DNA from: an uncultured bacterium
GTDB taxonomy: Bacteria; 4484-113
NCBI GenBank assembly: GCA_963749125.1
Contig: CAVVLL010000001.1
Location: forward strand, 53,724-117,723
DNA: 64,000 bases
Direction of reading: 5' to 3'
Shown one piece after another: positions 971 to 57,507 of the stretch. The position numbers were made by a program, and so were the translations under genes. The notes under the pieces were generated by a model that did not search any database, had not been told where the DNA came from, and worked only from the letters and a program-made list of their open reading frames with translations. The number at the start of each line of letters is the position of its first letter. Position 1 is the first letter of the stretch.

Positions 971-2416
971 ATGAAGGAACTCACTGACAGTTTCCTTAAT
1001 GTTGCGCAGATGGCTGGCGTCTCCTATGGCGACATCCGCGTTATTGAGGCGCAGACTGAAAGCATCGGGGTGAAGAACGGGTTGCTTGAGGATTTGTCCA
1101 AGACCTCCGATGCCGGTTTCGGCGTGCGCGTTTTGCATAAAGGATGCTGGGGCTTCGCCAGCTCCCGCGAACGCAATCCCGGAGAAGTCGCCCGCGTCAC
1201 CAAGCTCGCCGTTGAAATCGCCGAAGCTTCCGCGACGCTTAAGAAGAAAGACACCTGGCTGGTTGACGAGCCTGCGCACAAGGACGTTTACGTCACGCCG
1301 GTGAAAGAAGACCCCTTTACTTTGAGCATTGAAGAGAAGCTCAAGCTTCTCATGGAAACCAACGAGATAATGCGCAAAGTTCCGGGGATCACCAATGCAG
1401 TCTCCAGCTTTGACGCCTTCCGCGAGCACCAGTGGTTCGCCAACACGCAGGGCAGCGATATTGAGCAGACGATTACCGAGTGCGGCGCGGGGATGGAAGC
1501 GATGGCGGTGCGCGAAGGCGAGATGCAGCGCCGCTGCTATCCCAACTCCTTCCGTGGCCAGTTCCATACCGGCGGTTTTGAATACGTGCGCAAATACGAC
1601 TTGATGGCGCATGCGCAGCGCCTCGCCGAGGAATCGGTGCAGCTTCTGAACGCTGACCCTTGCCCCAGCATCACGACGACGCTGATACTTGACGGTAACC
1701 AGCTTGGGCTGCAAATCCACGAGAGCATCGGCCACCCAACCGAGCTTGACCGCGTGCTTGGAAGCGAAGCGGCATACGCCGGAATGAGCTTCGTCACGCC
1801 GGAGAAGCGCAACAACCTCAAATACGGCAGCGACATCATGCACGTCACGCACGACGCAACGCTGATGGGCGGCTTGGGCACTTTCGGCTACGACGACGAC
1901 GGCGTGAAGTCGCAGCGCATTGACCTCATCAAGAACGGCATGTTCCTAAACTACCTGACCAGCCGCGAGACGGCGCATGTCGTGGGCGATACCCGCTCCA
2001 ACGGCACAAACCGCGCCGATGGTTGGAACCGTATACCCATCATCCGCATGACGAACATCAACCTTGAGCCCGGCTCGGGCACGCTAGCTGAGCTAATCGC
2101 CGACACGAAAGACGGCGTGTTCATGAGCACGAACCGAAGCTGGAGCATTGACGACCGGCGCTTGAACTTCCAGTTCGGCTGCGAAATTGCCTGGGAAATC
2201 GTCAACGGCAAGCTCGGGCGGATGCTCAAGAACCCGAACTACACCGGCATCACCCCCGTCTTCTGGGGCGGCCTTGACCGCATATGCGGCCCCGAGGAAT
2301 GGGTCATCTGGGGCACGCCAAACTGCGGTAAGGGCCAGCCGGGCCAGACCGCCCATGTCGCGCACGGCGCCGCGCCGTCGCGTTTCCGCAACGTCCAGGT
2401 TGGGATCCGTGGATAA
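971..2416 (+). CDS. tldD: TldD-family zinc metalloprotease (peptidase U62)
   Basis: 481 aa. Contains HESIGHPTELDRV (the HExxxH motif typical of TldD). A GGAGG-like ribosome-binding site lies upstream of the ATG at 971. Confidence 0.85.
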   Translation: MKELTDSFLNVAQMAGVSYGDIRVIEAQTESIGVKNGLLEDLSKTSDAGFGVRVLHKGCWGFASSRERNPGEVARVTKLAVEIAEASATLKKKDTWLVDEPAHKDVYVTPVKEDPFTLSIEEKLKLLMETNEIMRKVPGITNAVSSFDAFREHQWFANTQGSDIEQTITECGAGMEAMAVREGEMQRRCYPNSFRGQFHTGGFEYVRKYDLMAHAQRLAEESVQLLNADPCPSITTTLILDGNQLGLQIHESIGHPTELDRVLGSEAAYAGMSFVTPEKRNNLKYGSDIMHVTHDATLMGGLGTFGYDDDGVKSQRIDLIKNGMFLNYLTSRETAHVVGDTRSNGTNRADGWNRIPIIRMTNINLEPGSGTLAELIADTKDGVFMSTNRSWSIDDRRLNFQFGCEIAWEIVNGKLGRMLKNPNYTGITPVFWGGLDRICGPEEWVIWGTPNCGKGQPGQTAHVAHGAAPSRFRNVQVGIRG

Positions 2417-2428
2417 AGGAGCAGCGAA

Positions 2429-3803
2429 ATGACCGACAAAGACTTCTATATGAATGCTGAAAAGGCGAAGAAGCTGGCGGTGGACGCGCTGGAAATGGCG
2501 CAGGCCGCTATCAAGCAATCCAGCGCTGATGAGACCGAAGTGGTCGTCTCCGCTTCGGATTTCAGCGCTCACGCGCTTCGCCAACAGCCAAATACACCAA
2601 AACAACTTTGAGCGCAACGCAAACATCACTGTGCGCGCCGCCAATGGCAAACGTGTCGCCAAGGCGTCGGGCAACATCCTCACGAAGGACGGGCTGCAAG
2701 CCGTGGTCAAGGATGCCTGCGCGCTGGCGAAGCTAGCCGCCGAGGACGACAACTGGGCAGGGCTGCCGGAAGGCGAATTCCAGTATCCCATAAAGGTGAA
2801 CTTCTTTGAAAACACGGCGCAGGTGACTCCCGCTGAGCGCGCCGCTGCATTGAAAGAGGTGTTTGACACCGCCGGCAGCGCGTATGAAGCCGCAGGCACG
2901 CTGTCCAATTCGGTTATCACGATGGTGGTCGCTAACTCGCACGGCGTGAAAGCATTCTGCAACACAACCGCCTCGCAGGTAACCATCCTCTACACCGGCT
3001 CCGACAGCAGCGGTTACGGCGAAGACTTCCAGCGCGACTTCAGCAAGCTGACGATTTCCGAGTGCGCGCGTCACGCCTTTGCGAAGGCGGAAGCCAGCCG
3101 CAATCCCAGCAGCGAGGTGGGCGTCGGCAAATACACGGTCGTGCTGGAAGAAGAAGCCGTGGCGACGATGCTCATGTTCCTCTCGTGGCTTGGCTTCTCC
3201 GGCAAGTCCTACCAGGACAATGAAAGCTTCCTTGTCGGGAAGCTGGGGACGCAGATAACAGGCGCGAATATCACGCTATACGACGATGCATCCGACCCGA
3301 GGACGATGGGGCTGCCGTTTGACTTTGAAGGCGTGCCGAAATCCAAGCTGATGCTCATTGAAAACGGGGTCGCCAAGGGCTACGCCCATAACTGGAAGAC
3401 CGCGAAGAAGGACGGCGTGGAGTCCACCGGCCACTACCTCGGCATGGAAGAGCCGCTGCCGGTAAACATGGTGTTGTCCCCGGGCGACAAGACGAAGGAT
3501 GAACTCATCGCCACGACCGATTACGGCATCCTTGTCAGCCGCTTCCATTACAGCAACGTCGTTGACCCGATGGAAACCGTCATCACGGGCATGACCCGCG
3601 ACGGCACGTTCCTCATTGAAAACGGCAAGATAACGAAGGGCTTGAAGAACTTCCGCTACACGCAAAACGTCCTCGCGGCATTGGCGAACAACGACGGCCT
3701 GACATCCACCCAGGACTTCAGCTCGGCGTTCTTCGGCGGCGGCGCGGTCGTGCCCGCGATGAAGATCAAAGACTTCAACTTCTCCGGCAAGACTGATTTC
3801 TAG
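2429..3803 (+). CDS. pmbA: PmbA/TldE-family peptidase, interrupted by an apparent 1-nt frameshift near 2560-2580
   Basis: The N-terminus (MTDKDFYMNAEKAKKLAVDALEMA...VVVSASDFS) is in frame 2429. The remainder (TRFANSQIHQN...) is in the frame of ORF 2454..3803. RFANS is a typical PmbA motif. The two frames join if one extra base is present near ...cacg|cgcttcgcc... Confidence 0.7.
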
Positions 3804-7499: not shown

Positions 7500-9674
7500 A
7501 TGAACCGAACTCACATATGCACGATACTCCTGGGCATTGTTCTCGCGATGCTCTTCGCTTCATTTGCCAGCGCGGAGACCATGAGTGCGAAGTCGGCGGA
7601 TAAACACGGGCTGATTAGCTTCCATAACCTTACAGTGAAGCTGGACCCGGCGGCGCATACAATTGATGCAACTGATACGGTCAGCCTGAATGGCAAAGGC
7701 GATAGAACGCTCACGGTGGCGTTTGGTAAAGAGCTATCCGTTTTCGCGCTTTCCGACACAGGAAGGGCGTTGGAGCTAACGCCGGGCACGATTGACGAAC
7801 TTCCCGAACACCTTACCGCATACGCACTGCTAATCCCGGCCGACGTGAAGGCTGCGACCTTCAGCTATAAGGGCGTTATCTACGACCCGATAAAGGAAGA
7901 GCAGACGCTGGCGCACGTACGCGGCGACGGGACTTTCGGCATTATTGGCGAAGAAGGCATCTACCTTGACGGCGGAAGCGGCTGGTATCCCATTGAAGAG
8001 ACAATGCTCGCGGGCTTTGAGCTAAACGCCTCAATTCCTAAGCCTATGATGCTCGTAGCCCAGGGAGACTTGCTGGGGCGCGATATGGGTGGGGGCGCAA
8101 GTAGCTCCACATGGCGCAGCGACATCCCGCAAGACGGGCTGACCCTTGTCGGCGGCGCATACAAAGTTGAATCGCGCAAAGTCGGCAAAACAACGCTCTC
8201 AACCTACTTGTTCCCTGAGCATGAGCAGTTTTCGGGCAAGCTGCTTGACGCGACAGAACAATACCTCAAGTTCTACACAAACATCCTCGGCGATTTCCCC
8301 TCCAATCGCTTTGACGTCGTGGAGAACTTCTTCCAAACCGGCTATGGCATGCCTGGTTACTCGCTGCTGGGCAACGCGGTGCTGGCGATGCTTGGGCGCG
8401 GCGGCGGCTACGACGTTACCGGCCCTTCGGGCGTCGCCCACGAGCTGATGCATAACTGGTGGGGAAACTACGTTTTCTACGACCCTGAGCAGGGCAACTG
8501 GTGCGAAGGGCTCACAACATATATGACGAATTACTATTGGGCGGAGACGAACGGGAAGCCCGATGAGGCAAAAGATTGGCGCAAGCGCGCGAGCGTGCGC
8601 TTCAGCCTTTATGCGCCGCCGGATAAGGCCTACCCCCTGCGCGAGTTCAAGTGGAAAGAAACCGAAGTTGACGACGCTGTCGGCTATGAGAAATGCGCCA
8701 TGTTCTTCCATTACATCCGCAGGCTTATCGGTGATGAGGCATTCTTCGCGGGCTTGAAGCAGGTAATCAAAGAGGAAGGCGGCGGCTTCGCATACTGGAG
8801 CGACTTTGAAGCGGCATTTGAAGCCACTTCGGGCCAAGAGCTTGGCGACGTATTCACCGAATGGCTGGACTTACCCGGCGCGCCGGTGTTTAAAGCGCAG
8901 GCACGGCGCAAGGACAACGCAGCTATTCTGCTGATTACCCAGCAAGAACCTTACTGGCCCATTAAGCTTGACTTCACCGGCATTGACAGCGAGGGCAAGC
9001 TAATGGCCGATGGCAGCATAAAGCTTGGCATAGGGCATGAAGCGACGGTTACCGTTACCTCGGGCAGCGATAAGCCCCCATTCCCCGGTGGGCTGACTTA
9101 CGAGATTGACCCCGATTGGCAGGTATTACGTTACATACCAGCCGAGGCGCTGGAGCCTTGCCTGAACGCGGTTTTGAATGAAAAGGGAGCTATTGTCGTC
9201 TATCCTTCCGGCACGGATGAAGTGTCCGCTGAGTTGCTTAAGCTCGTTGACACAATCCGCAGCTCGGGTAACGAGGTGCAGGTTATCGCAGACACGGAAT
9301 TTGAAGCGAAGATGCTGGCGGAGCATTCGGTAATGCTTTTGGGCGGTTCGCACGTGAACCGCGCTTGGGACAAGCTTGGGAATGCGCTGCCGCCGTCTGA
9401 ATTCACGACGAACGCCAAGTCGTTTTCCTTGCGCCGTAATGTATATGCCGCGCCGGAAGACAGCGTCGTGGCGACTTTTGCCAACCGCGAAAGCCCGGGG
9501 CACTTCATCGCCGTCTATCATGGTAATTCGGTTGCAGCGATGGCGCGTGCCAGGTTTATATTCTTTTACGGCTGGGACAGCTACCTGATATTCAGCGCTG
9601 GACAGGCCGCGGACAGGGGTATGTTCCCGGCAGCGGTTAACCCTTGGAAGGCCGAACTGCCGCCAGTAAGCTAA
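7500..9674 (+). CDS. Secreted M1-like gluzincin metallopeptidase
   Basis: HELMHNWWGN followed 17 residues later by Glu (HExxH...E). Signal peptide present. 724 aa. Confidence 0.7.
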   Translation: MNRTHICTILLGIVLAMLFASFASAETMSAKSADKHGLISFHNLTVKLDPAAHTIDATDTVSLNGKGDRTLTVAFGKELSVFALSDTGRALELTPGTIDELPEHLTAYALLIPADVKAATFSYKGVIYDPIKEEQTLAHVRGDGTFGIIGEEGIYLDGGSGWYPIEETMLAGFELNASIPKPMMLVAQGDLLGRDMGGGASSSTWRSDIPQDGLTLVGGAYKVESRKVGKTTLSTYLFPEHEQFSGKLLDATEQYLKFYTNILGDFPSNRFDVVENFFQTGYGMPGYSLLGNAVLAMLGRGGGYDVTGPSGVAHELMHNWWGNYVFYDPEQGNWCEGLTTYMTNYYWAETNGKPDEAKDWRKRASVRFSLYAPPDKAYPLREFKWKETEVDDAVGYEKCAMFFHYIRRLIGDEAFFAGLKQVIKEEGGGFAYWSDFEAAFEATSGQELGDVFTEWLDLPGAPVFKAQARRKDNAAILLITQQEPYWPIKLDFTGIDSEGKLMADGSIKLGIGHEATVTVTSGSDKPPFPGGLTYEIDPDWQVLRYIPAEALEPCLNAVLNEKGAIVVYPSGTDEVSAELLKLVDTIRSSGNEVQVIADTEFEAKMLAEHSVMLLGGSHVNRAWDKLGNALPPSEFTTNAKSFSLRRNVYAAPEDSVVATFANRESPGHFIAVYHGNSVAAMARARFIFFYGWDSYLIFSAGQAADRGMFPAAVNPWKAELPPVS

Positions 9675-25776: not shown

Positions 25777-25859
25777 GCCGAAGTGGCGGAATGGCAGACG
25801 CGCTAGGTTCAGGACCTAGTGAGAGCAATCTCGTGGGGGTTCGAGTCCCCCCTTCGGCA
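25777..25859 (+). tRNA. tRNA-Leu (anticodon CAG)
   Basis: Sequence gccgaagtggcggaatggcagacgcgctaggtTCAGGacctag...gggggttcgagtcccccttcggc-a. Acceptor stem 7 bp. Long variable arm. Anticodon loop ttCAGga. Confidence 0.85.
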
Positions 25860-40345: not shown

Positions 40346-43168
40346 ATGAGGACAGTAATCACGTTCATTATCGCAGCCTTAGCGCTAGCCATTCTCTTTG
40401 CCCTCTACTCCTGCGGAGGACATTCCCGCAAGGCTGTGACTTTAGCTAACACGGCTCCAATCGCCGCTCCGGCGGGGCAGCTATCTCTTAGCGTGAGTTG
40501 GCCACAGTCGCTGCCGGTTGACAAGCTCCAGCCCTGGGAGACGCTAGACGGTTCAGGCCGCTTGGCAAGCAGTATCAACCTGCAATCCCAGTTCGTCCCC
40601 GGCGCAGACCGCTTCCTTGAAGCTGGCGATGTGGTCAACCTTGGCGAGGCCTCGCGATTTGCCTCGGGAACTGCCGGCAACCGTGAAGTCTCATATGCCC
40701 TCTACCGAATACCAATGGGCTCGGAGCAACCGGGAACTATCGCCGCCGACGTGAACATCCTCGCCGGCGCTGAATACTACCTCGGCGTGGCCGACTACTC
40801 CGCCAACACCTGGCGCTGGCACGGCCCCTTCGCCGCTAACCATGTCCGCGTATCCCTGCCCGACTATGCATACACCAGCTCGCTGGGTAACTTATTCCTC
40901 GCGGCTGTGGCGTTTGACGGCTCTTCCTTTGACCTGGTCGGCCTGGGTGTGAACGCACGCGACTATGCTGACACTACGCCACCGCCAGCGCTTGCCGATG
41001 CGCCGTGGGTATCACCCTACAACGGAATGGTTCTAGTGGAATGGCCGCAGGTTGTAGCCTCTGACCTTGCAGGCTACCGCGTATACATAAATGGCGAAGA
41101 CGCTCTCGGCTACATAGAAGGCGGGACCGATGTCGCAGTGCCCACCGATGACGTTGTGGATGTAGCCGTAAGCGCAGTGGATATCAGCGGTAACGAGAGC
41201 GCCCCATCACCCGTTACAACGCAGGGGATGCCTGCTGGCACACCACCGGCTTGTCAGCTAATATCTTCCTCCGCATCCGGCATGCGCGGTGACATCATCG
41301 CCCTAACAGCATCCGGCGGCGACACCTACGACTGGGACATTGACGGCGACGGCAACTGGGATATGGTCGGCGTCACCGACACAAACGCCTTCGCCAACAC
41401 CACCAACATGGGCATCATCCGCCCGCGCATCTACGCGCATACCGCTGACGGCGGCTTCTGGATGGGCGCGGTGAGCCTCGTGATCGCAGGGAACTCGCGG
41501 CCGGTGGTCATGGCTACTGCGGACGTTATGTCCGGCCCTGCGCCTCTCAACGTTAACTTCTCGCTGATAGCTGAAGACGATGACGGCACAATCGTGGAAT
41601 ACGCCTGGGACTTTGAAGGCGACGGCATCTTCGACGCCACCTCGCCGGTCAATCCCACTCCCCTGCCATTCAGTTACCCCGCGACCGGAATGTATAACGC
41701 CAAGTTCCGCGTAACCGACAATGAAGGCGGATGGGACGTGGATACCGTCGCCATAAATGTCGCCGGAAGCCTTCCGCCCGTCGCCCTGCTAAACCTGAAC
41801 ACCGAGAAGGCATTCATGGGAGACTATGAAAGCGATGAGATTGTCTTCAACGCATCCGCAAGCTACGACCCCGACGGCGGGGCTCTTGAATATGCTTGGG
41901 ACTTGGACGGCAACGGCTTCTTCACTGCTTTCGGTGGTAACTCATCGCAGGCTAGGGTTTATACATCTCCAGGAACCCACCTCGCCAGCGTCCGCGTCCG
42001 TGACCCGCAAGGGATGGTGGCTGAGGCTTCGCGGCAAGTCTATGTTTACCGCTATATCTCTCATCTCGTAAACTCTGCAATCAGCGGCCGATATCCATCT
42101 CTTAGGGATGTTGGCGGCAAGCCTGCTATCGCGTTCTATGATTATACAAATAAAGATTTGATGTACGCGCGGGCTTCAACGGCTTCGCCATCAAGCACTG
42201 ATAATTGGCAGGTCCATTCTATCGATACAACGGACGACGTTGGGTCTCAGCCCTCGCTAGTTATCTTGACTGATGGCAATCCGGCGATGGTTTATCTGGA
42301 CCAGACTAATGGCTTGCTGAAGTTCGCACATTCAAACACAACCATCCCCGATAGCTCAGGTTACTGGTCAATACACACCGTCGTAGCAGCTAACGCAGCA
42401 ACGATGTGGGAAGATATCAGTTGCCAGTTGTGCCGCGGAGTTCCTATCATCTCTTACTATGATACTGCTACCCAAGACCTAAAATTCGCCAGGTCAACAC
42501 TGGAAATCCCCACTGCCACCGTGGATTGGGCTACACATACAATTGACAGCGGCGGCGCTGTAGGGCCGTACTCCGCTCTTTCAATAGTGACCACTGCAAC
42601 CGGCGAGTTGCCCGCGATTTACTACTACAATTCGACAAACGGCGACATCAAATATGCTCGCGCCAACTTATGGCCGCCTTCGGGTGCCGGTGATTGGACT
42701 ATTTACACACTCGACGATGGCGGCGGCAATTCTGTTGGCCAATACACCATTGGTGCCCTTCCCGATCCGGGGATTAACAATGGCAATCCTGTCGTGGTCT
42801 ATTTTGATGATACAGCTATGGACTGCAAAATAGCTTTGGCAAACACCCTTGAACCGTCCTCTTCCGCAGATTGGAACATCTACGTCCTGCGCGACGGTTC
42901 ATGGTACGTTGGCTTGAGCGCTTCGGTGCTACGCTATGGAGGAAGGCTCTTTGTCAGCTTCGGCGACCATGACAGTGAATACACATGGCTTGCGAAAGCT
43001 ATTGTCGGCAATCCAACATCTGTATCCGACTGGTGGTTCCACAGGATTGATGGCTCGTCATCAACCGATTGGTTCGGTACAAGCCTCGCGCTGGTGGACG
43101 GCAAGCCTATGCTTGCATATTACCAATACAGCTATTATCGGCTGAACATAGCTGTGCCTACGCTATAA
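40346..43168 (+). CDS. Large surface lipoprotein with an N-terminal domain, FN3-like domain, PKD domains and seven C-terminal repeats of about 52 aa (putative beta-propeller)
   Basis: Lipobox LYSC. PKD signatures EYAWDFEGDG and EYAWDLDGNG. C-terminal repeats of the form PSL...G.P.IAYYD.TN.DLKYA...P....DW..H.ID. 940 aa. Confidence 0.7.
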   Translation: MRTVITFIIAALALAILFALYSCGGHSRKAVTLANTAPIAAPAGQLSLSVSWPQSLPVDKLQPWETLDGSGRLASSINLQSQFVPGADRFLEAGDVVNLGEASRFASGTAGNREVSYALYRIPMGSEQPGTIAADVNILAGAEYYLGVADYSANTWRWHGPFAANHVRVSLPDYAYTSSLGNLFLAAVAFDGSSFDLVGLGVNARDYADTTPPPALADAPWVSPYNGMVLVEWPQVVASDLAGYRVYINGEDALGYIEGGTDVAVPTDDVVDVAVSAVDISGNESAPSPVTTQGMPAGTPPACQLISSSASGMRGDIIALTASGGDTYDWDIDGDGNWDMVGVTDTNAFANTTNMGIIRPRIYAHTADGGFWMGAVSLVIAGNSRPVVMATADVMSGPAPLNVNFSLIAEDDDGTIVEYAWDFEGDGIFDATSPVNPTPLPFSYPATGMYNAKFRVTDNEGGWDVDTVAINVAGSLPPVALLNLNTEKAFMGDYESDEIVFNASASYDPDGGALEYAWDLDGNGFFTAFGGNSSQARVYTSPGTHLASVRVRDPQGMVAEASRQVYVYRYISHLVNSAISGRYPSLRDVGGKPAIAFYDYTNKDLMYARASTASPSSTDNWQVHSIDTTDDVGSQPSLVILTDGNPAMVYLDQTNGLLKFAHSNTTIPDSSGYWSIHTVVAANAATMWEDISCQLCRGVPIISYYDTATQDLKFARSTLEIPTATVDWATHTIDSGGAVGPYSALSIVTTATGELPAIYYYNSTNGDIKYARANLWPPSGAGDWTIYTLDDGGGNSVGQYTIGALPDPGINNGNPVVVYFDDTAMDCKIALANTLEPSSSADWNIYVLRDGSWYVGLSASVLRYGGRLFVSFGDHDSEYTWLAKAIVGNPTSVSDWWFHRIDGSSSTDWFGTSLALVDGKPMLAYYQYSYYRLNIAVPTL

Positions 43169-43213: not shown

Positions 43214-46043
43214 ATGAAAAGGCTATTCGTTTTAATCTTTGGGGTTGTGGTTTTGGCGTTCATTGTCGCATTGACTGCATGTGGTGGAAACACTCGCAAG
43301 GCTACAGCTATCCCCGTGCTTTCGCCTGATTACGCCACAATGCTACAGCCGACGGCTAACTTGAGCTGGCCACAGTCGCTTCCGGTTGACAATCTCCAGC
43401 CTTGGGAAACGCTGGATGGCTCGGGACGATTGGTAAGCAGTATTAACCTGCAATCCCAGTTCGTTCCCGGCGCAGACAGATTCCTTGAAGCAGGCACAGT
43501 TACCGACTTAGGTGAAGCTTCTCGTTTCAACTCAGGCGATGTCGGCAACCGCGAAGTCTCATATGCCATTTACCGCATCCCGATGGGTGCTGAGCAGCCG
43601 GGGACCATCGCCGCCGATGTAAATGTTTACATCACAAGCGACTACTACGTCGGGATTGCTGACTACTCCGCCAACACATGGCGCTGGCACGGCCCATTCA
43701 AAGCGAACCATGTCCGCATTCCCCTGCCCGACCACGAATACACCAGCACTCTGGGCAACCTGATGCTGGCGGTCGTCGCATTTGACGGCGCAATGTTTGA
43801 CCTGGTAGGCCTGGGCGTGAACGCACGCGACTATGCCGACTCAACAGCGCCTGACGCCCCTCCTGCCCCGGTACTCACGCCAATCCCCGGCGGCTTGCTG
43901 GTGGAATGGCTGCCAGTGGTCGCTTCCGACTTGGCGGGCTACCGAAATCTACGCCAACGGGGCAGAGGCGCTGGGATACGTTGAGGGCGGAACCTCAGTT
44001 GTCATTCCTGCTGCTGGCCTTACTGAAATCAGGCTGCGCTCGGTGGATGTCTCCGGCAACGAAAGCGATTTCTCTGAGCCTGCTTCTGCGGGCGCGATGG
44101 AAGGCTACTTGCTCAACGTCATCCTGGCTACCACGGCAGCGTCAGGGCGCAGGGGCGAAATCATCGCGCTTAACGCCATTGGCGGCGAATCTTACGACTG
44201 GGACGTTGATGGCGATGGGACTTACGACGTCACCGGCGACCTGACTGGCACCGCGTTCGTCAACACCGATAGCTTAGGCATCATCCGCCCGTCTGTCCGT
44301 GGACACCACTCTAACGGCAGCTTCTGGATGGCTGCGGTGAGCCTGATTATCTCCGGCAATTCGCGGCCGGTGGCGATGGCGACGGTAGATATTGCGTCCG
44401 GCCCCGCCCCTCTGATGGTGAATTTCACCATTGTCGGTGAAGATGATGATGGGACTATCGTTGAGTATGCCTGGGACTTTGAGGGTGACGGCATCTTTGA
44501 CGCTACCTCGCCGGTCAATCCCACTCCTTTGCCATTCAGCTACCCCGCGACCGGAATGTATAACGCGAAGTTCCGAGTGACCGACAACGATGGCGGATGG
44601 GACGTGGATACCGTCGCCATAAATGTCGCCGGAAGCCTTCCGCCAGTCGCCCTGCTTAACCTGAATACCGAGAAGGCCTACATGGGCGAGCTTGCTCCAA
44701 GTGACGAGATTATCTTCAACGCATCCGCAAGCTACGACCCTGACGGGGGCTCACTTGAATACGCCTGGGACTTGGACGGCAACGGCTTCTTTACCGGCTT
44801 CGGGCCAGGTGCGATTATTGCTCAGGCGTATAATGCGCCGGGAACTTACCAGGCTGCAGTCCGCGTCCGCGACGCTCAGGGCATGGTAACCGAGGCTTCG
44901 CGCCAAGTGTATGTTTACCGCTGGAAGCGCTACAGCATTGATTCTACTTCATCCCCTATGCGGCCTTCAATTGCCATATCTGCAGGATATCCTGTATGCG
45001 CATATTACGGGAGCGGAGCGCAAGACTTGATGTTCGCTTATGCGACTACTAAATACCCAACCAGCAATTCTGACTGGCGCAGTTACGCGATAGAAACTAC
45101 GAATGCGGTAGGAGATTGGCCGTCGTTAGTGGTTTTAGGTGATGGCACCCTTGCAGTCTCGTACTCCGACGCTTCGAACGGTGACTTGAGATTTGCGTAT
45201 TCAAACTCCGCCTTACCAATTTCAAATGCTGATTGGTCCATATACCCGATAGACACAGGGGGATCCGTAGGTCTCTACAGCTCAATAGCACTTCGTGATG
45301 GATACCCCATCATTAGCTATTACGACTCTACTAATAGCGACTTGAAGTACGCCGAGTCTTCAGTGACAAATCCGACTTCCGCGCTTGAATGGGTCACCCA
45401 TACGGTTGACGACGGTACTAATGTTGGCCAATACACGCGTATGTGCGTTGTATCAACACCTACTCTGCTTCCTGCTATTGCATACTATGACCCAGGCAAT
45501 CAATCGTTGAAGTATGCCCGCGCAACTATCTCATCGCCCACTTCGTCTAGCGACTGGATTATCCACACTTTAGCAACCGGAGCGCAAGCTGGATACGCTG
45601 GCTTGGGTGCGCTACAGTATCCCGGCACCACTAACGGGAATCCAGTAGTAGCCTATATTGATTGGGATAACTACGATTTGAGAATTGCCACTGCAAACGT
45701 CTTGGAGCCTTCCGGCCCAGGGGATTGGAACGATTACATCCTTGACGATGGAATAAACTTCTATATCGGCCATTCAGCTACGGTCATGAAACATGCAGGC
45801 AGGCTGTACGTTGCCTACAACGATATGGATGATTATATCTATGATCTGAAGCTTGCGAAATCCAAAGTGGCTAATCCGGCTTCACCATCAGACTGGACAC
45901 TCCATACCGTGGACTCAAGCTATGCCTTCATTGACTGGTGGGGAATCAGCATGACGCTGCAGGATGGAAAAGTTGTTTTGTCATATGGGAATGATAGTGG
46001 TTTGGGCCGACAAATCAGCATCGCCATTCCGGCTCTTGAATAA
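43214..46043 (+). CDS. Paralogous large PKD/repeat lipoprotein, interrupted by a 1-nt frameshift near 43944-43947
   Basis: Same architecture as 40346..43168. ORFs 43199..43984 and 43833..46043 join if one base is restored in ...ggctaccga(g)aaatctac... (DLAGYR | EIYANGAEA). Confidence 0.6.
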
Positions 46044-46130: not shown

Positions 46131-46201
46131 GCTAGGCAGGCGTTGCAGGAATCTCATGGGTGCTGAATAGCGAAAGCCTGCCGGAGGGCAGGCATAAAAA
46201 A

Positions 46202-46318
<117 letters not shown>

Positions 46319-48712: not shown

Positions 48713-50041
48713 ATGCCGAACATAGAAACCCTACGTGATTACATGCTACGCCTAAAGGGCGCGAACATCGGTGACACCGAGCTTTACTGCGTTGAAGGCG
48801 AAAGCACGCGCGTGTCCGTGCGCGACCGTAAAGTTGAAAACGTGCAGCAAAGCCGCAGTTGCGGGCTGGGCATCCGCGCGCTGAAAGAAGGCCGCCTTGC
48901 GTTCACGCACACGACCGACTTGTCTCCCGCAGGCATTGACGCAGCGGCGAAGAGCCTCGCGGATTTCCTTGCGGTTACCGAGCCCGACGAGCACAACAAG
49001 CTCGCCGACCCGCAGACGCCCGCAGTGAAAGTGCTTGACGCCAACGACGGTGGGCAGGCAGACGCCGCCGTGCTGTCGGACCACGCGCGCGATATGGCAG
49101 CATTCGCGCTGTCGGTTGAGCATGTGTCGCTCGCGGAGGCGCGCGTTGACGCGCACCACACCCGCGTGAACCTGCTGAACTCGCTGGGCGTTGACCTGTC
49201 GTCGGAAAGCACGATGTATGAAGCGCTGACGAAGGCGCATGCGCACAAGGGCGACCTCAAGGAAGTCGCATATTCCTATGCAGCGGCGCGCCATTACGCC
49301 GACCTCTATCCCTCATGCCGCATCGGCGGCGAGGCCGCGGAGTGGGCACGCGACAAGCTGGGCGCGGAGCCCCTCCCCACCGGCGACCGCCCCATCGTGT
49401 TCATGCCGATGGCGGGCGGCAGCATCGTTGAGTATCTCGCCGGCGCGCTAAACGGCGAGATGGTCAACATGGGCGTGACGTTCATGACCGGCAAGCTCAA
49501 CGAGCAAATCGCCTCGGAGCTGGTGCACCTCATTGAAGACCCGCTGATGAAGCGCAGCGTTGAGAGCAGCGCATGGGACGGCGAAGGCACGCCGACCGCA
49601 CGCAAGCACGTCATAAGGAAAGGCATCCTCACCACCTACTTCCACAATATCAAGTCGGCCTCCAAGGCTGGCGTCGTGACAACCGCCAACGCATCGCGCG
49701 GCGGTTTTGCCTCAATGCCCGGCATCGGCAACCTCGGGCTGTTCATGGAAGAGGGCAAGACACCGGTTTCGCAGCTCATCGGCGAAGTGGAAGACGGGCT
49801 GCTCGTCTATATGATGATGGGTCACGGCCCCGACATGTCCACCGGCATGCTCTCAATGGGCGCGTCCGGCTGGCACATCAAAGACGGCAAAATCGGCAAG
49901 CCGGTCAGCAAGGTCACCATCGCGGGCAACATGATCGACCTGTTCAAGAACATTGACGCGGTCGGGAACGACCTTGACCTTGCGCGGCCATACCGCACGC
50001 CGACGTTCCGCGTCTCCAAGATGAGCGTCAGCGGAAGCTAA
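48713..50041 (+). CDS. TldD/PmbA-family peptidase (third homologue in the window)
   Basis: 442 aa. Family-typical N-terminal layout and a C-terminal GxGxxxxG-like Gly-rich region (MMGHGPDMSTGMLSMGASGWHIKDGK). Confidence 0.75.
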   Translation: MPNIETLRDYMLRLKGANIGDTELYCVEGESTRVSVRDRKVENVQQSRSCGLGIRALKEGRLAFTHTTDLSPAGIDAAAKSLADFLAVTEPDEHNKLADPQTPAVKVLDANDGGQADAAVLSDHARDMAAFALSVEHVSLAEARVDAHHTRVNLLNSLGVDLSSESTMYEALTKAHAHKGDLKEVAYSYAAARHYADLYPSCRIGGEAAEWARDKLGAEPLPTGDRPIVFMPMAGGSIVEYLAGALNGEMVNMGVTFMTGKLNEQIASELVHLIEDPLMKRSVESSAWDGEGTPTARKHVIRKGILTTYFHNIKSASKAGVVTTANASRGGFASMPGIGNLGLFMEEGKTPVSQLIGEVEDGLLVYMMMGHGPDMSTGMLSMGASGWHIKDGKIGKPVSKVTIAGNMIDLFKNIDAVGNDLDLARPYRTPTFRVSKMSVSGS

Positions 50042-51559: not shown

Positions 51560-52533
51560 TTCGGAGACAGTTGTAACATCGAGGAGGCACTAGGAGGTGT
51601 TATTCGATGGGACAACGAGGCATATCTGGCAGCACGGATCTGCGTATGGCGGCAGTGCGCGCGATAACAGAGGAAGGAGTTGGGATCGCTCAAGCCGCAA
51701 GCCTGTTTGGCGTTAGCAGGCAGAGCATATGGCGTTGGGTATCCCGCTACCGCGAGGGCGGTGAACCGGGACTGAAGGAGATTTCCCGGCGGCCTGCGAG
51801 CAGCCCAGTGCAGGCGTGCCGCGAGAAGGAAGATGCCGTCTTGAAACTCAGGCAGGACAGGGCCTGGGGCGCTGCGAGAATAGGGTCGAGAGTTGGCCTG
51901 GCGGGAAGCACGGTTCACCGTATCCTGCGCGAGCACGGCATATCGAAGATACAGGTGCCGCGCAAGAAATACCCGCGTTACGAGATGGCCTTTCCCGGCG
52001 AGCTCGTGCACATAGACTCCAAGGAGTTGGTGCCGTTGCGAGCTGGGATGCGGCCTGAGTTCCTTTTCGCCGCGCTGGACGGATACAGCCGCGAAGTGTT
52101 CTTGCAGGTGTTTCCCCGGGCTGATAGCGCCTCCAGTTCCGAATTTCTGGAATGGCTGATAGACACAATTCCCTACAGACTTTGCGGCGTCATGACCGAC
52201 AATGCGTGGGCTTTCACTATGCGGCTAAGCGCCCACCCAGACCGGCGCACGCCTTTCCAAAACCTGCTGGAGCGAAACGGCGTTGAGCACCGCCTGACCA
52301 AGCCTTACCACCCGCGCACCAACGGCAAGGTGGAGCGCTTCTTCGGCACGGTCGGAAGGGAGCTGCTTCGCGTCGTGCGTTTCCACGACAGCGCTCACAG
52401 GAGGGACGAATTAGCCTGCTTTGGCTCCTATTACAACCTTGTCCGGCCCCATTCCGCAATCAACCATCACTCCCCAACCCCCTACCGTATACAATACTTT
52501 CAAGCTAACCCCGATGTAACATATGTCTCCGAA
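51560..52533 (+). mobile_element. IS481-family-like insertion sequence
   Basis: Terminal inverted repeats ttcggagaca (51560-51569) and tgtctccgaa (52524-52533). They enclose a single transposase ORF. Confidence 0.6.
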
Positions 52534-52536
52534 TAG
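51607..52536 (+). CDS. DDE transposase (rve integrase core) with an N-terminal helix-turn-helix (HTH), IS481-like
   Basis: HTH segment GVSRQSIWRWVSRY. DDE/rve core ...DNAWAF... KPYHPRTNGKVERFF. Confidence 0.8.
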   Translation: MGQRGISGSTDLRMAAVRAITEEGVGIAQAASLFGVSRQSIWRWVSRYREGGEPGLKEISRRPASSPVQACREKEDAVLKLRQDRAWGAARIGSRVGLAGSTVHRILREHGISKIQVPRKKYPRYEMAFPGELVHIDSKELVPLRAGMRPEFLFAALDGYSREVFLQVFPRADSASSSEFLEWLIDTIPYRLCGVMTDNAWAFTMRLSAHPDRRTPFQNLLERNGVEHRLTKPYHPRTNGKVERFFGTVGRELLRVVRFHDSAHRRDELACFGSYYNLVRPHSAINHHSPTPYRIQYFQANPDVTYVSE

Positions 52537-52637: not shown

Positions 52638-53612
52638 GTGGACGAGACCGAAAAGGGGAAAGCTGCCTCCGAAAAAGCGCCCAAGCGCAGGCATGCGGCG
52701 TGGTGGGTGGAGATACTCATCGCCATCGCGGTCGTGCTCGTCATCGTTGGCATAGCGATACCGGCGTATAACCAGCACAAACTCACGCTTAAGACCGCGC
52801 AGGCAGAACAGAATCTTCGAGAGATAGGGTACGCATTAGGGGAATATTCCTCCAAAGATCAGAACGCCTGGAAGTTTCCTGAGTACCTAATCGGAGGAAG
52901 CGCCCCTTCCACTGGAAGCAAGGACGCATCCGACCCGCTAATCCGCGAAGGTTATCTCGCTTCATATCCTAAGAACCCATTCGCAGCGATGGTGAACGTG
53001 AGCGAGATACAGAAGAAATACAACGACCCACTAAGGCCTGGCGGTGAAGGCTCCAAGTTTGGCTTTCGTTTCGGCGAAGACGGCGCGCTCATGGGAAACG
53101 TGCTGGCTGATGTGCGCTTCTCCGGCAAATACGCCGAATTCGGTTATCCCTTCTATGATTTATGGCCAAAAGACAAGCGCCGTCCAAAGGAATATATCCC
53201 CGGCGCGTTTTTCTATCGCAGTTGTCCGACGCTCGTTTCTACAAGTAATTTGTCAGGAGAACAGCCGAAATCCCAGTTCCGAAGCCCTGAGATGTATGGC
53301 AGCCTATGGTCAAGCGCCGCTTATGCGAAGCGGGCTCCATGGGTGCCTAAAGGCGGCGCCGAGAACTACATACTTGGGCTGTATGGGCCAATTAACAGCC
53401 CAGGAAAAGATATTCTCGGCGAACCTCAAATGATGGTCTATTACTATCCCATACACAAAGATCGGGAGAAGGTAGGCGTGATGGGATATACATACAGTGA
53501 CCCTAATAAGACTTCGCCATTTGGTTCCCAGATTGATCTTGAACCACCTCTCAATCCAAATGGGATTCCCGATTGCATTGTGTTCAATTGGTATGGACCG
53601 ATGGATTCATGA
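52638..53612 (+). CDS. Pilin-like protein: type IV prepilin-like N-terminus plus a globular domain of about 290 aa (paralog 1 of 4)
   Basis: KRRHA|AWWVEILIAIAVVLVIVGIAIPAYN aligns position-for-position with G|FTLIELMIVVAIIGILAAIAIPQY (Glu at +5, Pro at +22, Tyr at +24). Confidence 0.6.
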   Translation: MDETEKGKAASEKAPKRRHAAWWVEILIAIAVVLVIVGIAIPAYNQHKLTLKTAQAEQNLREIGYALGEYSSKDQNAWKFPEYLIGGSAPSTGSKDASDPLIREGYLASYPKNPFAAMVNVSEIQKKYNDPLRPGGEGSKFGFRFGEDGALMGNVLADVRFSGKYAEFGYPFYDLWPKDKRRPKEYIPGAFFYRSCPTLVSTSNLSGEQPKSQFRSPEMYGSLWSSAAYAKRAPWVPKGGAENYILGLYGPINSPGKDILGEPQMMVYYYPIHKDREKVGVMGYTYSDPNKTSPFGSQIDLEPPLNPNGIPDCIVFNWYGPMDS

Positions 53613-53627
53613 TTTCAGGAGAGAACA

Positions 53628-54641
53628 ATGAGCGCTGAGCGCGGGAATCATCTTGTGAGAAAAGGGAACGAGCGCGCGTTATGGCTCGTTGAAATCACGT
53701 TAGCGTTAATCCTCATCGTAATAATCGCGGGAGTTGCAATGCCAAGCTACACCGCGCATAAAAAGGCTAAGCTACACTCCGAGCTCAACAGCGGTTTATA
53801 CGAGATTCAACAAGGGCTTGAACGTTTCGCCGTTGACCACGGCAAGACGTATCCTGACTACCTGATTGGCGGAAGCGCACCAGACTTTTCGGGGGATTTC
53901 GGCAATTCATCCCCGCAGGCGTCGGACGTTTTACTGCGCGAAGGATACTTACAGGAATATCCGCCAAATCCATTCATGGTTACGCAGCAAGTGGAGGAAA
54001 TGCAGGAGGAATTTAGCGACCTTTTCCGCCCTGGGACTGCGCAGTCTATGTATGGCTGCCGCTTCGGAGATGATTATGACTTGATGGGCCAGGTGATGGC
54101 CGATTTTCGCTTCCCCAAGCTGGAAGGGCAGAAGCCGATTACCAAGGATGGGATGACCTATTACGATGATGTCCAATATCCCTGCTTTAATCTTTGGATG
54201 CTGGAGACGAAAAGGTTTTTCCCGGGGGAGTTCTTCTACAAGTCCGCCGGAAGCATCATGTTATCCAAGTTGTATAAGCCCAACCCCAACCAGCCGTTGG
54301 TAGCTGCTAAATCCGAAGTATATGTGCTCGGTGTTTATGGCGGCCCGCGCGACAAGGGCATGGATGTGCTGGGATGGGAGCCGCAAGTCGCATTCCGCAC
54401 CAAAAAGGCAAACTCAGAGCAGCCAGCCGAGTTCAAGCTTCCGCTTTGGACCCGCTCTTCAATGAGGACTTTTGGCGAAGGTAAGTATGTTTATTCAGGA
54501 AGCCCCTTCGGTGAGCCGAGGGAATACATAGATTACGGGTTTAGGCTTATCTCGTTTGACGGGCAGCAAGACGGAGTGATCACGACGATGCAACCAGAGC
54601 CGATCATCACCGCTTTTATCTCCGACGGGACTAAGAAATGA
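53628..54641 (+). CDS. Pilin-like protein, paralog 2 of 4
   Basis: ERA|LWLVEITLALILIVIIAGVAMPSYTAH. Shares YPDYLIGGSAP, REGYL..YP.NPF and PGEFFYKSAG with the other three. Confidence 0.6.
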   Translation: MSAERGNHLVRKGNERALWLVEITLALILIVIIAGVAMPSYTAHKKAKLHSELNSGLYEIQQGLERFAVDHGKTYPDYLIGGSAPDFSGDFGNSSPQASDVLLREGYLQEYPPNPFMVTQQVEEMQEEFSDLFRPGTAQSMYGCRFGDDYDLMGQVMADFRFPKLEGQKPITKDGMTYYDDVQYPCFNLWMLETKRFFPGEFFYKSAGSIMLSKLYKPNPNQPLVAAKSEVYVLGVYGGPRDKGMDVLGWEPQVAFRTKKANSEQPAEFKLPLWTRSSMRTFGEGKYVYSGSPFGEPREYIDYGFRLISFDGQQDGVITTMQPEPIITAFISDGTKK

Positions 54642-55609
54642 CCGACGAGATGAAGAGTGAGGAAGTAAAAGCGCCGAAGCGCAGGCATGCGGCTTGGTGG
54701 GTGGAGATACTCATCGCCATCGCCGTCGTCATCGTCGTCGTTGGCATAGCGATCCCGGCGTATAACGCAAAGAAGACAGAAGCGCGGCGCACAGAAGCCA
54801 AGGCAAAACTACACGAGATACAGCTCGCCATTGAGCACTCCGCGGTGGACACAGGCGGGACATACCCCGATTACCTCATTGGCGGAAGCGCGCCACGCGG
54901 CGACGACCCTAAGCAACCCTTTGCCAATGCATCCGACACGCTTTTACGCAAAGGATATTTAACCGCTTACCCCCGAAACCCATTCGCAGTGCCGCACAGA
55001 GTGGAGGCGATGCAGGAGAAGTACCGCGACCCGTTTAGGCCCGGCACAAGCGAGTCCAAGTATGGCTATCGTTTCGGTGAGGATTACATGCTCATGGGCC
55101 AGGTGCTCGCCGACTTTCGGTTCCCGAAGGCGCTTGTATTCAATGGCAAGAAGCTTACTTCGCACCCAAGCTACGCCGACTTCGGCTACCCATTCTGGGA
55201 TATCTGGCCGAGAAACTCAAAGCCTAGGCCATTCCTCCCGGGCGAGTTCTTCTACAAGTCAGCGGGGAATATCGTCGTGACTAATAAGGAAAGCGTTAAT
55301 CCAGACAGGCCGCTTGTGCCGACTATCGTAGAAATATACATGCTGGGTTTGTATGGTAGTGCGAAAGATACCGGAAAAGATGTCCTCGGAGCTGAGCCGA
55401 CAACGACTTTCCGGACTTATACAGACCAGGCAAAGACACTTGAGGAATTCACTGTTCCTGTGTGGACGCGCTCTACTGACAAGCCTGATAATAATGGTGA
55501 GTTTCTCGGTTCGCCTTACGGCCCTGGTGAGTGGCAATTTGACTACGAAAATCCCAACAAGATTCCAGATGCAATAATCCTCGTTATTGTCCCAGGCGAA
55601 GACACGTAA
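54638..55609 (+). CDS. Pilin-like protein, paralog 3 of 4
   Basis: KRRHA|AWWVEILIAIAVVIVVVGIAIPAYN. Conserved C-terminal domain. Confidence 0.6.
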   Translation: MTDEMKSEEVKAPKRRHAAWWVEILIAIAVVIVVVGIAIPAYNAKKTEARRTEAKAKLHEIQLAIEHSAVDTGGTYPDYLIGGSAPRGDDPKQPFANASDTLLRKGYLTAYPRNPFAVPHRVEAMQEKYRDPFRPGTSESKYGYRFGEDYMLMGQVLADFRFPKALVFNGKKLTSHPSYADFGYPFWDIWPRNSKPRPFLPGEFFYKSAGNIVVTNKESVNPDRPLVPTIVEIYMLGLYGSAKDTGKDVLGAEPTTTFRTYTDQAKTLEEFTVPVWTRSTDKPDNNGEFLGSPYGPGEWQFDYENPNKIPDAIILVIVPGEDT

Positions 55610-55623
55610 GGAGCGCAAGACTA

Positions 55624-56622
55624 ATGGCCGATGAAAATACTGCCTCCAAGAATGCGCCGAAGCGCAGGCGGGCGGCGTGGTGGGTGGAGATACTCATCGC
55701 CATCGCCGTCATCCTCGTCGTCGTTGGAATAGCGTTGCCTTCATATAACATCGACAGGGCCAATGCGCGACGTGGGGAAGCCAAGAAGAATCTTCATGAG
55801 ATTCAACTGGCGGTTGAGCGGTATGCAATGGGAACAGGCGGGATGTATCCTGAGTTCTTGCTTGGCGGCAGCGCCCCACACGATGAAGACCAGAGGAACC
55901 TCCCTGCGCAGGCATCAGACCCGCTTATACGGGAAGGCTATCTAACCGAGTATCCCCGAAATCCTTTCGCCGTGCCGCAGACAGTGAAAGCCATGCAGGA
56001 GAAATACAACGACCCGTTCAGGCCGGGCACTGAGCAATCCAAGTTTGGGATGCGCTTCGGTGAAGATTACACGCTAATGGGCCAGGTCCTCGCTGACTTC
56101 CGTTACCCCAAGTTGCCCGGCCAGAAGATGACGCAATCCAACGGCATCTATTACTACGCAGATACCGAATATCCTTTCTGGGATATTTGGGCTAATCGCT
56201 TTAATCCTAAGTCCTTTCTTCCAGGCGAGTTTTTTTATAAGACATATGGCATGCTTGAATTCGCCAGCGAAAAAGATGTTCCCACAGATCGTCCCATCGC
56301 GCCGAAGATAGCTGAAATCTATTTGTTAGGGTTATATGGCGGTATTAGGGATAGAGGTAAAGATGTTCTGGGGATGGAATATAAGGTTTATTTCCATCCT
56401 AACTTTGAGGGAGCATCAAGATACGATGATTTCACTGCTCAGACTTGGACTCGTTCAACAATGACACTAGACGCAAGAGGAGAATTTCAGGGCAGTGCAT
56501 TCGGCCTCACGATAGGGGCGGACGTAGAACAGCTCGGATACGGTAGTCCTAATGGAATCGCAGATGCGATTATATTAGGGCTTGTCCCCGGCGAAGATAC
56601 AACGCCTTACGCTTATCCTTAA
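55624..56622 (+). CDS. Pilin-like protein, paralog 4 of 4
   Basis: KRRRA|AWWVEILIAIAVILVVVGIALPSYN. Conserved C-terminal domain. Confidence 0.6.
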   Translation: MADENTASKNAPKRRRAAWWVEILIAIAVILVVVGIALPSYNIDRANARRGEAKKNLHEIQLAVERYAMGTGGMYPEFLLGGSAPHDEDQRNLPAQASDPLIREGYLTEYPRNPFAVPQTVKAMQEKYNDPFRPGTEQSKFGMRFGEDYTLMGQVLADFRYPKLPGQKMTQSNGIYYYADTEYPFWDIWANRFNPKSFLPGEFFYKTYGMLEFASEKDVPTDRPIAPKIAEIYLLGLYGGIRDRGKDVLGMEYKVYFHPNFEGASRYDDFTAQTWTRSTMTLDARGEFQGSAFGLTIGADVEQLGYGSPNGIADAIILGLVPGEDTTPYAYP

Positions 56623-56700: not shown

Positions 56701-56805
56701 ATACTACTTACTACATACTCCATACTACATACCTCCCAACTCTCAACCCTTAACTCTCAACTCTCTCCCCGCCCCATTTTGCATTCGCTGCGGTGCGGTG
56801 CGATA

Positions 56806-57507
56806 ATGGCTGCGACCTTGGAGAGGAAAACGCAAACAGCAAAAGCGGCGGCAGCCAAAGTCCTGTTGGACCACAAAGAACTGCGCCTGCCGGATAACAT
56901 CAAGACCGTCCAGGACCTGCTCATCCACGTGCAGGCGGCGGTGCTCACCGGCGACCGCGTGCTCCAGACAATCCTCCTTGACGGCGAGAAGCTGTCTGAG
57001 AAGGGTGAGCGCGACGCGCACACGATGCTGCTTTCCGACTACCGCCAGGTGGAGCTGCAGACGCGCAAGGTGCTTGACCTCGCGGTTGACGGCCTCATCG
57101 ACGCCCAAGACGTCATCCCCGCCATCACCAACGACCTGCGGGAGTTGGTGAAGCTCCTGCGCGTGGGCGACATTGAAGGCGGCATTGAGATGCTCCACGA
57201 GAGCGTCCAGATGATGGACTGGTATATTGAGCTGGTGCATGCGATTGAAGCGGTGTTCCACGCAAACAAGCCCTGGCTGCGGCAAAAATACCCCGAGAAC
57301 GCGGTGAACGGCGAGGAGTTCAAGACCTTCCAGTCAAAGACCGCGCTCATAGACAAGTTCAACGACCTGGAGCAATACCAGGAAGCGCAGGACTACGCCG
57401 GCGTCGCCGACTTGATGGAATACGACATCCTGCCCATGGTTGAAGAATGGCGCGAAGAGCTGCCGGGCATTCTCGCGAAGATGAAGGCCGAGAGCGCCGA
57501 GGCGTAA
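56806..57507 (+). CDS. Hypothetical protein
   Basis: ORF 56779..57507. An internal ATG at 56806 follows a TTGCAT-N17-GATAAT promoter-like element. Confidence 0.45.
   Translation: MAATLERKTQTAKAAAAKVLLDHKELRLPDNIKTVQDLLIHVQAAVLTGDRVLQTILLDGEKLSEKGERDAHTMLLSDYRQVELQTRKVLDLAVDGLIDAQDVIPAITNDLRELVKLLRVGDIEGGIEMLHESVQMMDWYIELVHAIEAVFHANKPWLRQKYPENAVNGEEFKTFQSKTALIDKFNDLEQYQEAQDYAGVADLMEYDILPMVEEWREELPGILAKMKAESAEA

Follow-up and report, generated by a model that had tools for sequence, protein, structure and literature searches.

The major subunits of type IVa pili (PilA/PilE; IPR012902/PF07963) carry a leader followed by about 21 hydrophobic residues with Glu at +5 and Pro at +22, and their ~55-residue alpha1 helix packs on a beta-sheet head. 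The hydrophilic leader of such class III signals ends in Gly or Ala (PMC8179133, PMC10191384), and proteins with this signal are generally known to insert with the N-terminus inside and the C-terminus outside (PMC10191384). The same layout is shared by the products of four tandem genes in a 64,000-nucleotide stretch of DNA from an uncultured bacterium (contig CAVVLL010000001.1, positions 53,724 to 117,723; hereafter the window). An earlier reading of the letters alone (the original prediction) had described these genes as plus-strand paralogs with a pilin-like N-terminus, and all four were recovered as open reading frames (ORFs; Table 1). As detailed below, they belong to a small family, previously undescribed, whose members resemble type IV pilins but are very large, and within it they fall in a derived branch with a remodelled signal.

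Compared with characterised type IVa major pilins, whose mature subunits measure 120-210 aa, members of this family are large (about 305 aa), and their head, of about 250 aa, has neither a solved neighbour nor a conserved disulfide. The window copies depart further in having Ala at -1 and +1 and Trp at +2 and +3 (A|AWWVE in three copies, A|LWLVE in paralog 2), in their leader of 17-20 aa, in not being matched by PF07963 and in not lying near any pilus machinery genes. Family members with a textbook prepilin signal, called canonical throughout, are encoded after pilB-pilT-pilC, as type IVa major pilins are.

With regard to other known families, no Pfam or NCBIfam family reached its cutoff for any of the four proteins. 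The NCBIfam matches were weak and confined to the N-terminus (GspG, ComGE and PilA), the best being to GspG/PulG (TIGR01710, PF08334) at 24.5 bits over residues 22-126 of paralog 3, and JGI labels several relatives 'pseudopilin PulG'. Membership of GspG/PulG was rejected: the TIGR01710 cutoff is 88.85, the similarity is lost without the transmembrane (TM) helix, and PF08334 matches only one of 83 family members. Moreover, the gene cluster of the canonical relatives includes a PilT-like retraction ATPase, which speaks for a type IV pilus and against type II secretion.

A parallel had also been drawn to the DUF1559/PVC H-X9-DG proteins, which likewise join a prepilin-type N-terminus to a lineage-specific domain of about 250-300 aa, occur in multiple copies in Planctomycetota and usually lie away from machinery genes. 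The parallel stands as a concept but not as membership, as neither the four proteins nor the 83 relatives match DUF1559, and none of the four contains the H-x9-DG motif (regex H.{9}DG), as had been suspected. Furthermore, the present family is small (167 representatives at 50% identity) rather than massively expanded, and whereas DUF1559 proteins retain the canonical G|FTLIEL, the window copies do not carry it.

N-terminal signal and head domain

The N-termini read ...APKRRHA|AWWVEILIAIAVV in paralogs 1 and 3, with Arg for His in paralog 4 (KRRRA|AWWVE), and ...GNERA|LWLVEITLALIL in paralog 2. In a MAFFT alignment with the canonical relatives, Gly-1 and Glu+5 are matched by the first Ala and the Glu, and positions +22 and +24 by the Pro and the Tyr, in agreement with the residue register proposed earlier. 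The sequences were thus as first described, but the label 'non-canonical' for Ala at -1 does not hold, since Gly or Ala is accepted at this position (PMC8179133, PMC10191384), and all four basic leaders end in one of the two. All four proteins also pass the PilFind motif rule, i.e. [GAS]-x4-[DE] followed by 14 uncharged residues in a protein of at most 350 aa with a single N-terminal TM segment (PMC3244431): at least 14 uncharged residues follow the Glu in each copy, and the proteins are 323-337 aa long. In contrast, none of the four proteins was matched by PF07963 or TIGR02532, even with the E-value limit raised to 1, while PF07963 matches 22 of the 83 relatives. A class III signal is therefore recognised by the motif rule but not by the hidden Markov models. 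For annotation this means that PF07963/TIGR02532 miss these proteins and PilFind-type rules call them pilins, neither of which settles processing; the N-terminal peptides that would tell the processed from the unprocessed form are (N-methyl-)AWWVEILIAIAVV... and MTDEMKSEEVKAPKR..., respectively.

An alternative register, [GAS]|WWxE with Glu at +4, was considered. Its -1 position is better conserved than that of the register used here, the residue before the Trp pair being Ala in 21 and Ser in one of the 23 sequences of the window-type clade (see below), and Gly in the relatives P0030 and P0048. It was not adopted; paralog 2 has Leu at that -1, and we know of no pilin class with Glu at +4. By inspection, no plausible A-x-A site for signal peptidase I was seen after the helix, and no conserved cysteine pair or disulfide was found.

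The motifs that had been listed as common to the four proteins are present, but not letter-perfect in every copy, as paralog 1 carries the variants FPEYLIGG, PGAFFYRSCP and RFGEDGALMGNVLADVRFSG. An AlphaFold2 model of paralog 3, built on an 83-sequence alignment (pLDDT 93.2, pTM 0.87), consists of a 56-residue helix (residues 16-71) and an alpha/beta head (residues 72-323), in which a long loop region with short helices is followed by multi-stranded beta structure. The model shows the lollipop fold of pilins, with an alpha1 of about 50 residues whose C-terminal half packs on an antiparallel beta-sheet. Over alpha1 only, the family profile matches the solved pilins Geobacter PilA-N (1.6e-9) and Myxococcus PilA (4e-6) as well as PulG (4e-5), and alpha1 matches to Thermus PilA4 were also obtained. 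A head-only profile matched no PDB sequence, and Foldseek found no structural neighbour of the paralog 3 model among solved structures (best E=0.088). These results show that the family is homologous to type IV pilins and that its head is without a solved structural neighbour. The C-terminal domain, unrecognised at first, has accordingly stayed so in Pfam, NCBIfam and the PDB, by sequence and by structure; a match to a described family, named at the outset as an outcome that would have ended its novelty, was not obtained in Pfam, NCBIfam or DUF1559.

A large head on a pilin helix brings to mind the modular type IV pilins (Streptococcus sanguinis PilB and PilC, CofB and GspK; PMC8179133), which are also oversized through extra mass on a pilin scaffold and whose second module is also found outside pilins, or is joined by a linker (PMC8179133). 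Another reading of the window proteins is a modular or secreted family, similar to these modular pilins or to the DUF1559-type proteins of Planctomycetes, in which a prepilin-type leader merely serves to carry an unrelated domain, such as an enzyme, lectin or binding protein, to the surface. We consider this very unlikely. Each protein does extend about 290 residues past the signal, the conserved aromatic-rich motifs could form a binding surface, and modular pilins are widespread (PMC8179133); however, the 167 head representatives occur in no other architecture, DUF1559 and H-x9-DG are both absent, and the head is modelled as a single compact domain packed on alpha1C rather than as two linker-joined modules. 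Membership of the modular pilins was rejected on the same grounds, as the head is found only behind an N-terminal helix or anchor and forms one compact modelled domain.

Family members and their link to pilus machinery

Among 5.8 billion proteins searched, 117 relatives were recovered, and a head-only profile, made from the four window copies after removal of the helix, gave the 167 representatives mentioned above among 1.84 billion proteins. Where the matches to this profile are full-length, the domain begins after 50-135 residues, and none of these proteins exceeds 489 aa. Since the head is never seen apart from a helix or anchor, it appears to be specific to this pilin family and not a domain acquired from another source. 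The named genomes that contain the family are all metagenome-assembled genomes (MAGs) of uncultured Planctomycetota, including Planctomycetales, and the taxonomic placement of the window is inferred from this distribution.

The members fall into four N-terminal classes: (a) the textbook prepilin signal MNRRG|FTLIELLVVIVIIGILAAIALPNY, with PF07963; (b) the window type, [A/T/S/V]-A-W-W-[V/A]-E; (c) a plain hydrophobic anchor with or without Glu; and (d) a zinc ribbon at the N-terminus, followed by a linker of 60-130 aa and then a TM helix. Common to all four are the amphipathic helix AKEAEVKxNLHxIQLxVERFAVD and the head motifs, and many of the distant head-profile representatives are again canonical G|FTLIEL proteins.

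Canonical members are tied to pilus machinery by gene order. P0020 lies directly downstream of genes for PilB-like (MshEN+T2SSE, 605 aa), PilT-like (380 aa) and PilC-like (T2SSF, 405 aa) proteins, and tblastn recovered the same pilB-pilT-pilC order, whole or in part, at loci L001-L008, L012, L015/L038, L022/L023, L032 and L034. This brings the contigs on which a canonical member follows pilB-pilT-pilC to at least 12, of which several come from different named Planctomycetales/Planctomycetota MAGs. At four of these loci the surroundings were scanned, and no ORF within 10 kb other than the family gene carried a class III motif. Because they are encoded directly after pilB-pilT-pilC, the canonical members are probably the major pilin of those organisms, as judged by gene order. 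If so, their mature subunits, at about 305 aa, would rank with the largest known, and a head fold absent from the PDB would widen the structural range of type IV filaments, in a phylum (Planctomycetota) whose surface fibres are poorly understood.

Copies with a degenerate signal behave differently. None of them adjoins pilB-pilT-pilC, the one exception, in L015, being a gene that closely follows the canonical copy, and three single MAGs (CSMAG_2248, AUK046 and binchicken_co163_352) each combine one canonical copy at pilB-pilT-pilC with degenerate paralogs elsewhere. In the window, neither a prepilin peptidase (Peptidase_A24) nor T2SSE, T2SSF or a secretin was detected in a Pfam scan of most ORFs of at least 150-180 aa, and tblastn with PilB, PilT and PilC across all 64 kb found no pilus machinery, in keeping with the original prediction. 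Likewise, none was found within 10 kb of the relatives in the window-type clade.

Several further features of the family and of the pilB-pilT-pilC loci were recorded. A Peptidase_S55 (SpoIVB-type) protein of about 700 aa with a signal-peptide-like N-terminus is conserved some 200-300 nt 3' of the canonical pilin gene (L001-L005, L007, L022, L023, L032 and L034), and a conserved 267-aa protein with no assigned function is encoded upstream of pilB. In L003 a truncated second copy of the canonical pilin (8055-8501) lies just 3' of the full-length gene; it consists of 72 N-terminal aa (92% identical) joined to a C-terminal fragment. The zinc-ribbon members (P0053, P0072, P0075, P0079, P0094, P0096-P0098 and P0106; loci L014, L027, L039 and L040) carry CxxC...CxxC and a Pro/Gly/Ala-rich linker before the TM helix and stand alone in unrelated neighbourhoods; they are pilin-head proteins with a cytoplasmic domain. 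Another subclade (P0030, P0048, P0049, P0056, P0074, P0110, P0145 and P0190; L011 and L013) has a conserved Cys motif, K/R-G-C-[MVIL]-G/T..., in the cytoplasmic leader just ahead of the TM helix.

Signal remodelling and the fate of the window proteins

In a neighbour-joining tree of the head domain the window-type sequences form a monophyletic clade, whereas canonical members are scattered over at least four clades, interleaved with degenerate and zinc-ribbon plus TM forms. This scatter indicates that the canonical signal is ancestral and has been lost repeatedly, and the window clade is shown to be a derived branch in which the signal was remodelled. Its leader has lengthened from about 5 to 17-20 aa with a conserved APKRR, Gly-1 has given way to Ala (Thr, Val or Ser in orthologues) and Phe-Thr-Leu to Ala-Trp-Trp. 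Clade members are present in wastewater and sediment samples such as ERZ3455899 and ERZ965038. Among the 23 sequences of the clade, Trp+2, Gly+18 and Pro+22 are invariant, Glu+5 is kept in 22 (Asp in the other) and Ala+1 in 21. Position -1 is among the least conserved of the segment (16 Ala, 5 Thr, 1 Val and 1 Ser), and six of the 23 fail the PilFind rule. In other branches -1 is Arg, Asn or Ile, plainly uncleavable residues, and the Glu is still kept; retention of the Glu alone is therefore no sign of processing.

The four paralogs share 35-58% identity with the N-terminus excluded, which leaves them clearly paralogous over a slightly wider range than the 40-50% first estimated. They belong to four different orthogroups: paralog 1 groups with P0041 and P0045, paralog 3 with P0002, P0003 and P0004, and paralog 4 with P0010, P0012 and P0017, while paralog 2 stands alone. 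The duplications are thus old, as had been proposed for the array. The orthogroup of paralog 4 is also the one found at the syntenic locus L030, which shares with the window the order MFS, PmbA/TldD, DUF92, array, DUF8042-like, HAD, DinB, acyltransferase, DapB, Asd, MraZ and RsmH and which has two copies at the array site, both with Thr at -1. Arrays of two copies are likewise present in L024-L026, and at least three copies lie on a 3.8-kb JGI contig; a metagenome scan for further window-type arrays returned only other clades.

Superimposed on this divergence, a 5' segment of about 100 nt, covering the end of the leader and alpha1N, is homogenised among paralogs 1, 3 and 4, with paralog 2 excluded. 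Among identical residues, the codons are identical in 83-89% of cases within the segment as against about 46% in the rest of the genes. The 5' ends of these three paralogs underwent gene conversion, and the near-identity of their N-termini, correctly noticed at first, partly reflects this process.

Taken as a signal, then, the N-terminus of the window proteins is not of a new type but a derived, eroding state of the canonical G|FTLIEL signal. The existence of canonical relatives and the acceptance of Ala at -1 make the proteins less exceptional than first thought. What is new is a large-head pilin family with a branch whose prepilin signal erodes, and it is the head and the pilin-to-anchor transitions that are worth following up. 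Pilins have in this family turned repeatedly and independently into membrane-anchored proteins, with Gly-1 erosion, leader lengthening, Glu+5 loss and zinc-ribbon fusion as visible steps and the window array at an intermediate stage.

The reading to which we give about even credence is that the window proteins are membrane-anchored, periplasm-facing pilin derivatives for which cleavage by a prepilin peptidase is no longer required. The basic leader and the hydrophobic alpha1N would insert the protein into the cytoplasmic membrane with its N-terminus inside and its head in the periplasm, and the proteins would function mainly in this tethered form. The conserved alpha1N (Trp+2, Glu+5, Gly+18 and Pro+22) probably mediates helix-helix contacts in the membrane, either with other paralogs or with components of a pilus machinery, and Ala-1 in this genome may still permit some processing and occasional incorporation into pili. 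We favour such an anchor because position -1 drifts, also at the orthologous locus L030, because Ala-Trp-Trp replaces Phe-Thr-Leu beside a Lys/Arg cluster, because the leader is long and conserved, because the family repeatedly and unambiguously converts to anchors, and because linkage to machinery is missing. A Trp-Trp pair beside Lys/Arg is typical of a stable interfacial anchor. Moreover, the branches with cytoplasmic zinc-ribbon extensions of 60-130 aa demonstrate that membrane tethering is compatible with a working head.

Less probable, although a serious contender, is that the array encodes four fully functional type IV pilins, cleaved after Ala-1, possibly N-methylated and polymerised by machinery encoded elsewhere. 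On this view the paralogs, as alternative or minor subunits, would have a common filament-core helix but each its own large head. Several observations speak for this. All four proteins have Ala, an accepted leader end (PMC8179133, PMC10191384), at -1 and satisfy PilFind, and the clade keeps Glu+5, Gly+18 and Pro+22; alpha1N is far more conserved than the head and was homogenised by gene conversion while the heads diverged, as would be expected if the subunits had to co-assemble within a single filament core. The canonical relatives have their link to pilB-pilT-pilC, and pilin genes away from the machinery, like pilin-only operons, are common, examples being the DUF1559 proteins and many PilFind hits outside biosynthetic operons (PMC3244431). 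The Thr, Val or Ser found at -1 in seven of the 23 clade members, including both L030 genes, is a point on the other side, although the lineage's prepilin peptidase could tolerate Thr or Ser. The replacement of all of Phe+1, Thr+2 and Leu+3 together with the failure of PF07963 to detect the proteins, the long and conserved leader, the repeated conversion of the family to obvious membrane anchors, and the lack of pilus machinery both in the window and near any clade member likewise count against processed subunits. The comparative sequence evidence on cleavage and polymerisation is split. The pilin-like interpretation holds in that the profile matches solved pilins and PulG and the canonical relatives lie at pilB-pilT-pilC, but cleavage is doubtful. 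An uncleaved signal anchor, which the original prediction had itself named as fatal to the pilin interpretation, is a live possibility, and we lean slightly towards it over processed pilus subunits.

A more far-reaching proposal, which we regard as unlikely, is that the window proteins represent a distinct class of type IV filament subunit, about 300 aa in size, with a head of new fold, an A/T/S|AWWxE signal and processing by a prepilin peptidase of relaxed specificity, or else a form with an uncleaved helix. In the first version, four paralogs with a gene-converted core helix could co-assemble into a thick heteropolymeric fibre; in the second, the uncleaved pilin helix could have been exapted to form, within the membrane, the core of a new periplasmic complex of several subunits.

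Gene array and genomic surroundings

The coordinates of the array and of other features of the window are collected in Table 1. The four ORFs are packed in an operon-like manner, with gaps of 15 nt and 14 nt and one 4-nt overlap between paralogs 2 and 3. All are intact, and since each of the four proteins has orthologues in other genomes, they are real genes. A scan for promoters and terminators gave no more sites than were obtained in shuffled sequences.

Table 1. Features of the 64-kb window and their positions
Feature	Positions	Strand	Remarks
Paralog 1	52638..53612	+	GTG start, 324 aa; 20-aa leader, A|AWWVE, alpha1 helix, ~250-aa head
Paralog 2	53628..54641	+	337 aa; 17-aa leader, A|LWLVE; most divergent copy
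Paralog 3	54638..55609	+	323 aa; 18-aa leader, A|AWWVE; copy that was modelled
Paralog 4	55624..56622	+	332 aa; 17-aa leader, A|AWWVE
5' homogenised segment, paralog 1	52677..52775	+	leader end and alpha1N; homogenised with paralogs 3 and 4, 83-85% of codons identical among identical residues (46% in the remainder of the gene)
5' homogenised segment, paralog 3	54671..54769	+	residues 12-44
5' homogenised segment, paralog 4	55654..55752	+	
IS481-type transposase, intact	51607..52536	+	HTH_23/HTH_28 and rve/rve_3; directly upstream of array
ORF directly 3' of array	56779..57507	+	
PKD-domain protein	40346..43168	+	940 aa; upstream of array
PKD-domain protein	43833..46043	+	736 aa; upstream of array
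5S rRNA gene	46201..46317	-	full-length, 104.5 bits
tRNA	25777..25859	+	
PmbA/TldD-family metallopeptidase genes	971..2416, 2454..3803, 48713..50041	+	

The IS481-type transposase raises the question whether the four genes are decaying, functionless pilin duplicates beside an insertion sequence, which we consider highly improbable. The position of the transposase, the degenerate signal and the G+C content of the array region (0.535, as against 0.61-0.63 in the flanks) would all fit such decay, but the reading frames are intact and have orthologues elsewhere, about 60 alignment columns are invariant among the four paralogs and 18 across the 83 family members, and the array keeps its position in the syntenic relative (L030), which is without the IS481-type transposase. 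The transposase is context with no functional part, although it may be linked to rearrangement of the array.

The remaining ORFs scanned in the window encode housekeeping and envelope proteins. The ORF directly 3' of the array gave no Pfam match with an E-value limit of 0.001; in L030 the ORF at the corresponding position was recorded as DUF8042 (PF26154). Besides the three PmbA/TldD-family genes, the window encodes M16, M1, HtrA-like, DUF4953 Met-zincin and rhomboid peptidases. The 5S rRNA gene appears to be an orphan, as the window has neither a 23S nor a 16S rRNA gene. PKD-domain proteins, two large examples of which are encoded upstream of the array, are also found in L024/L025, together with a gene for a ComEC-type competence channel, near a related pilin-like pair.

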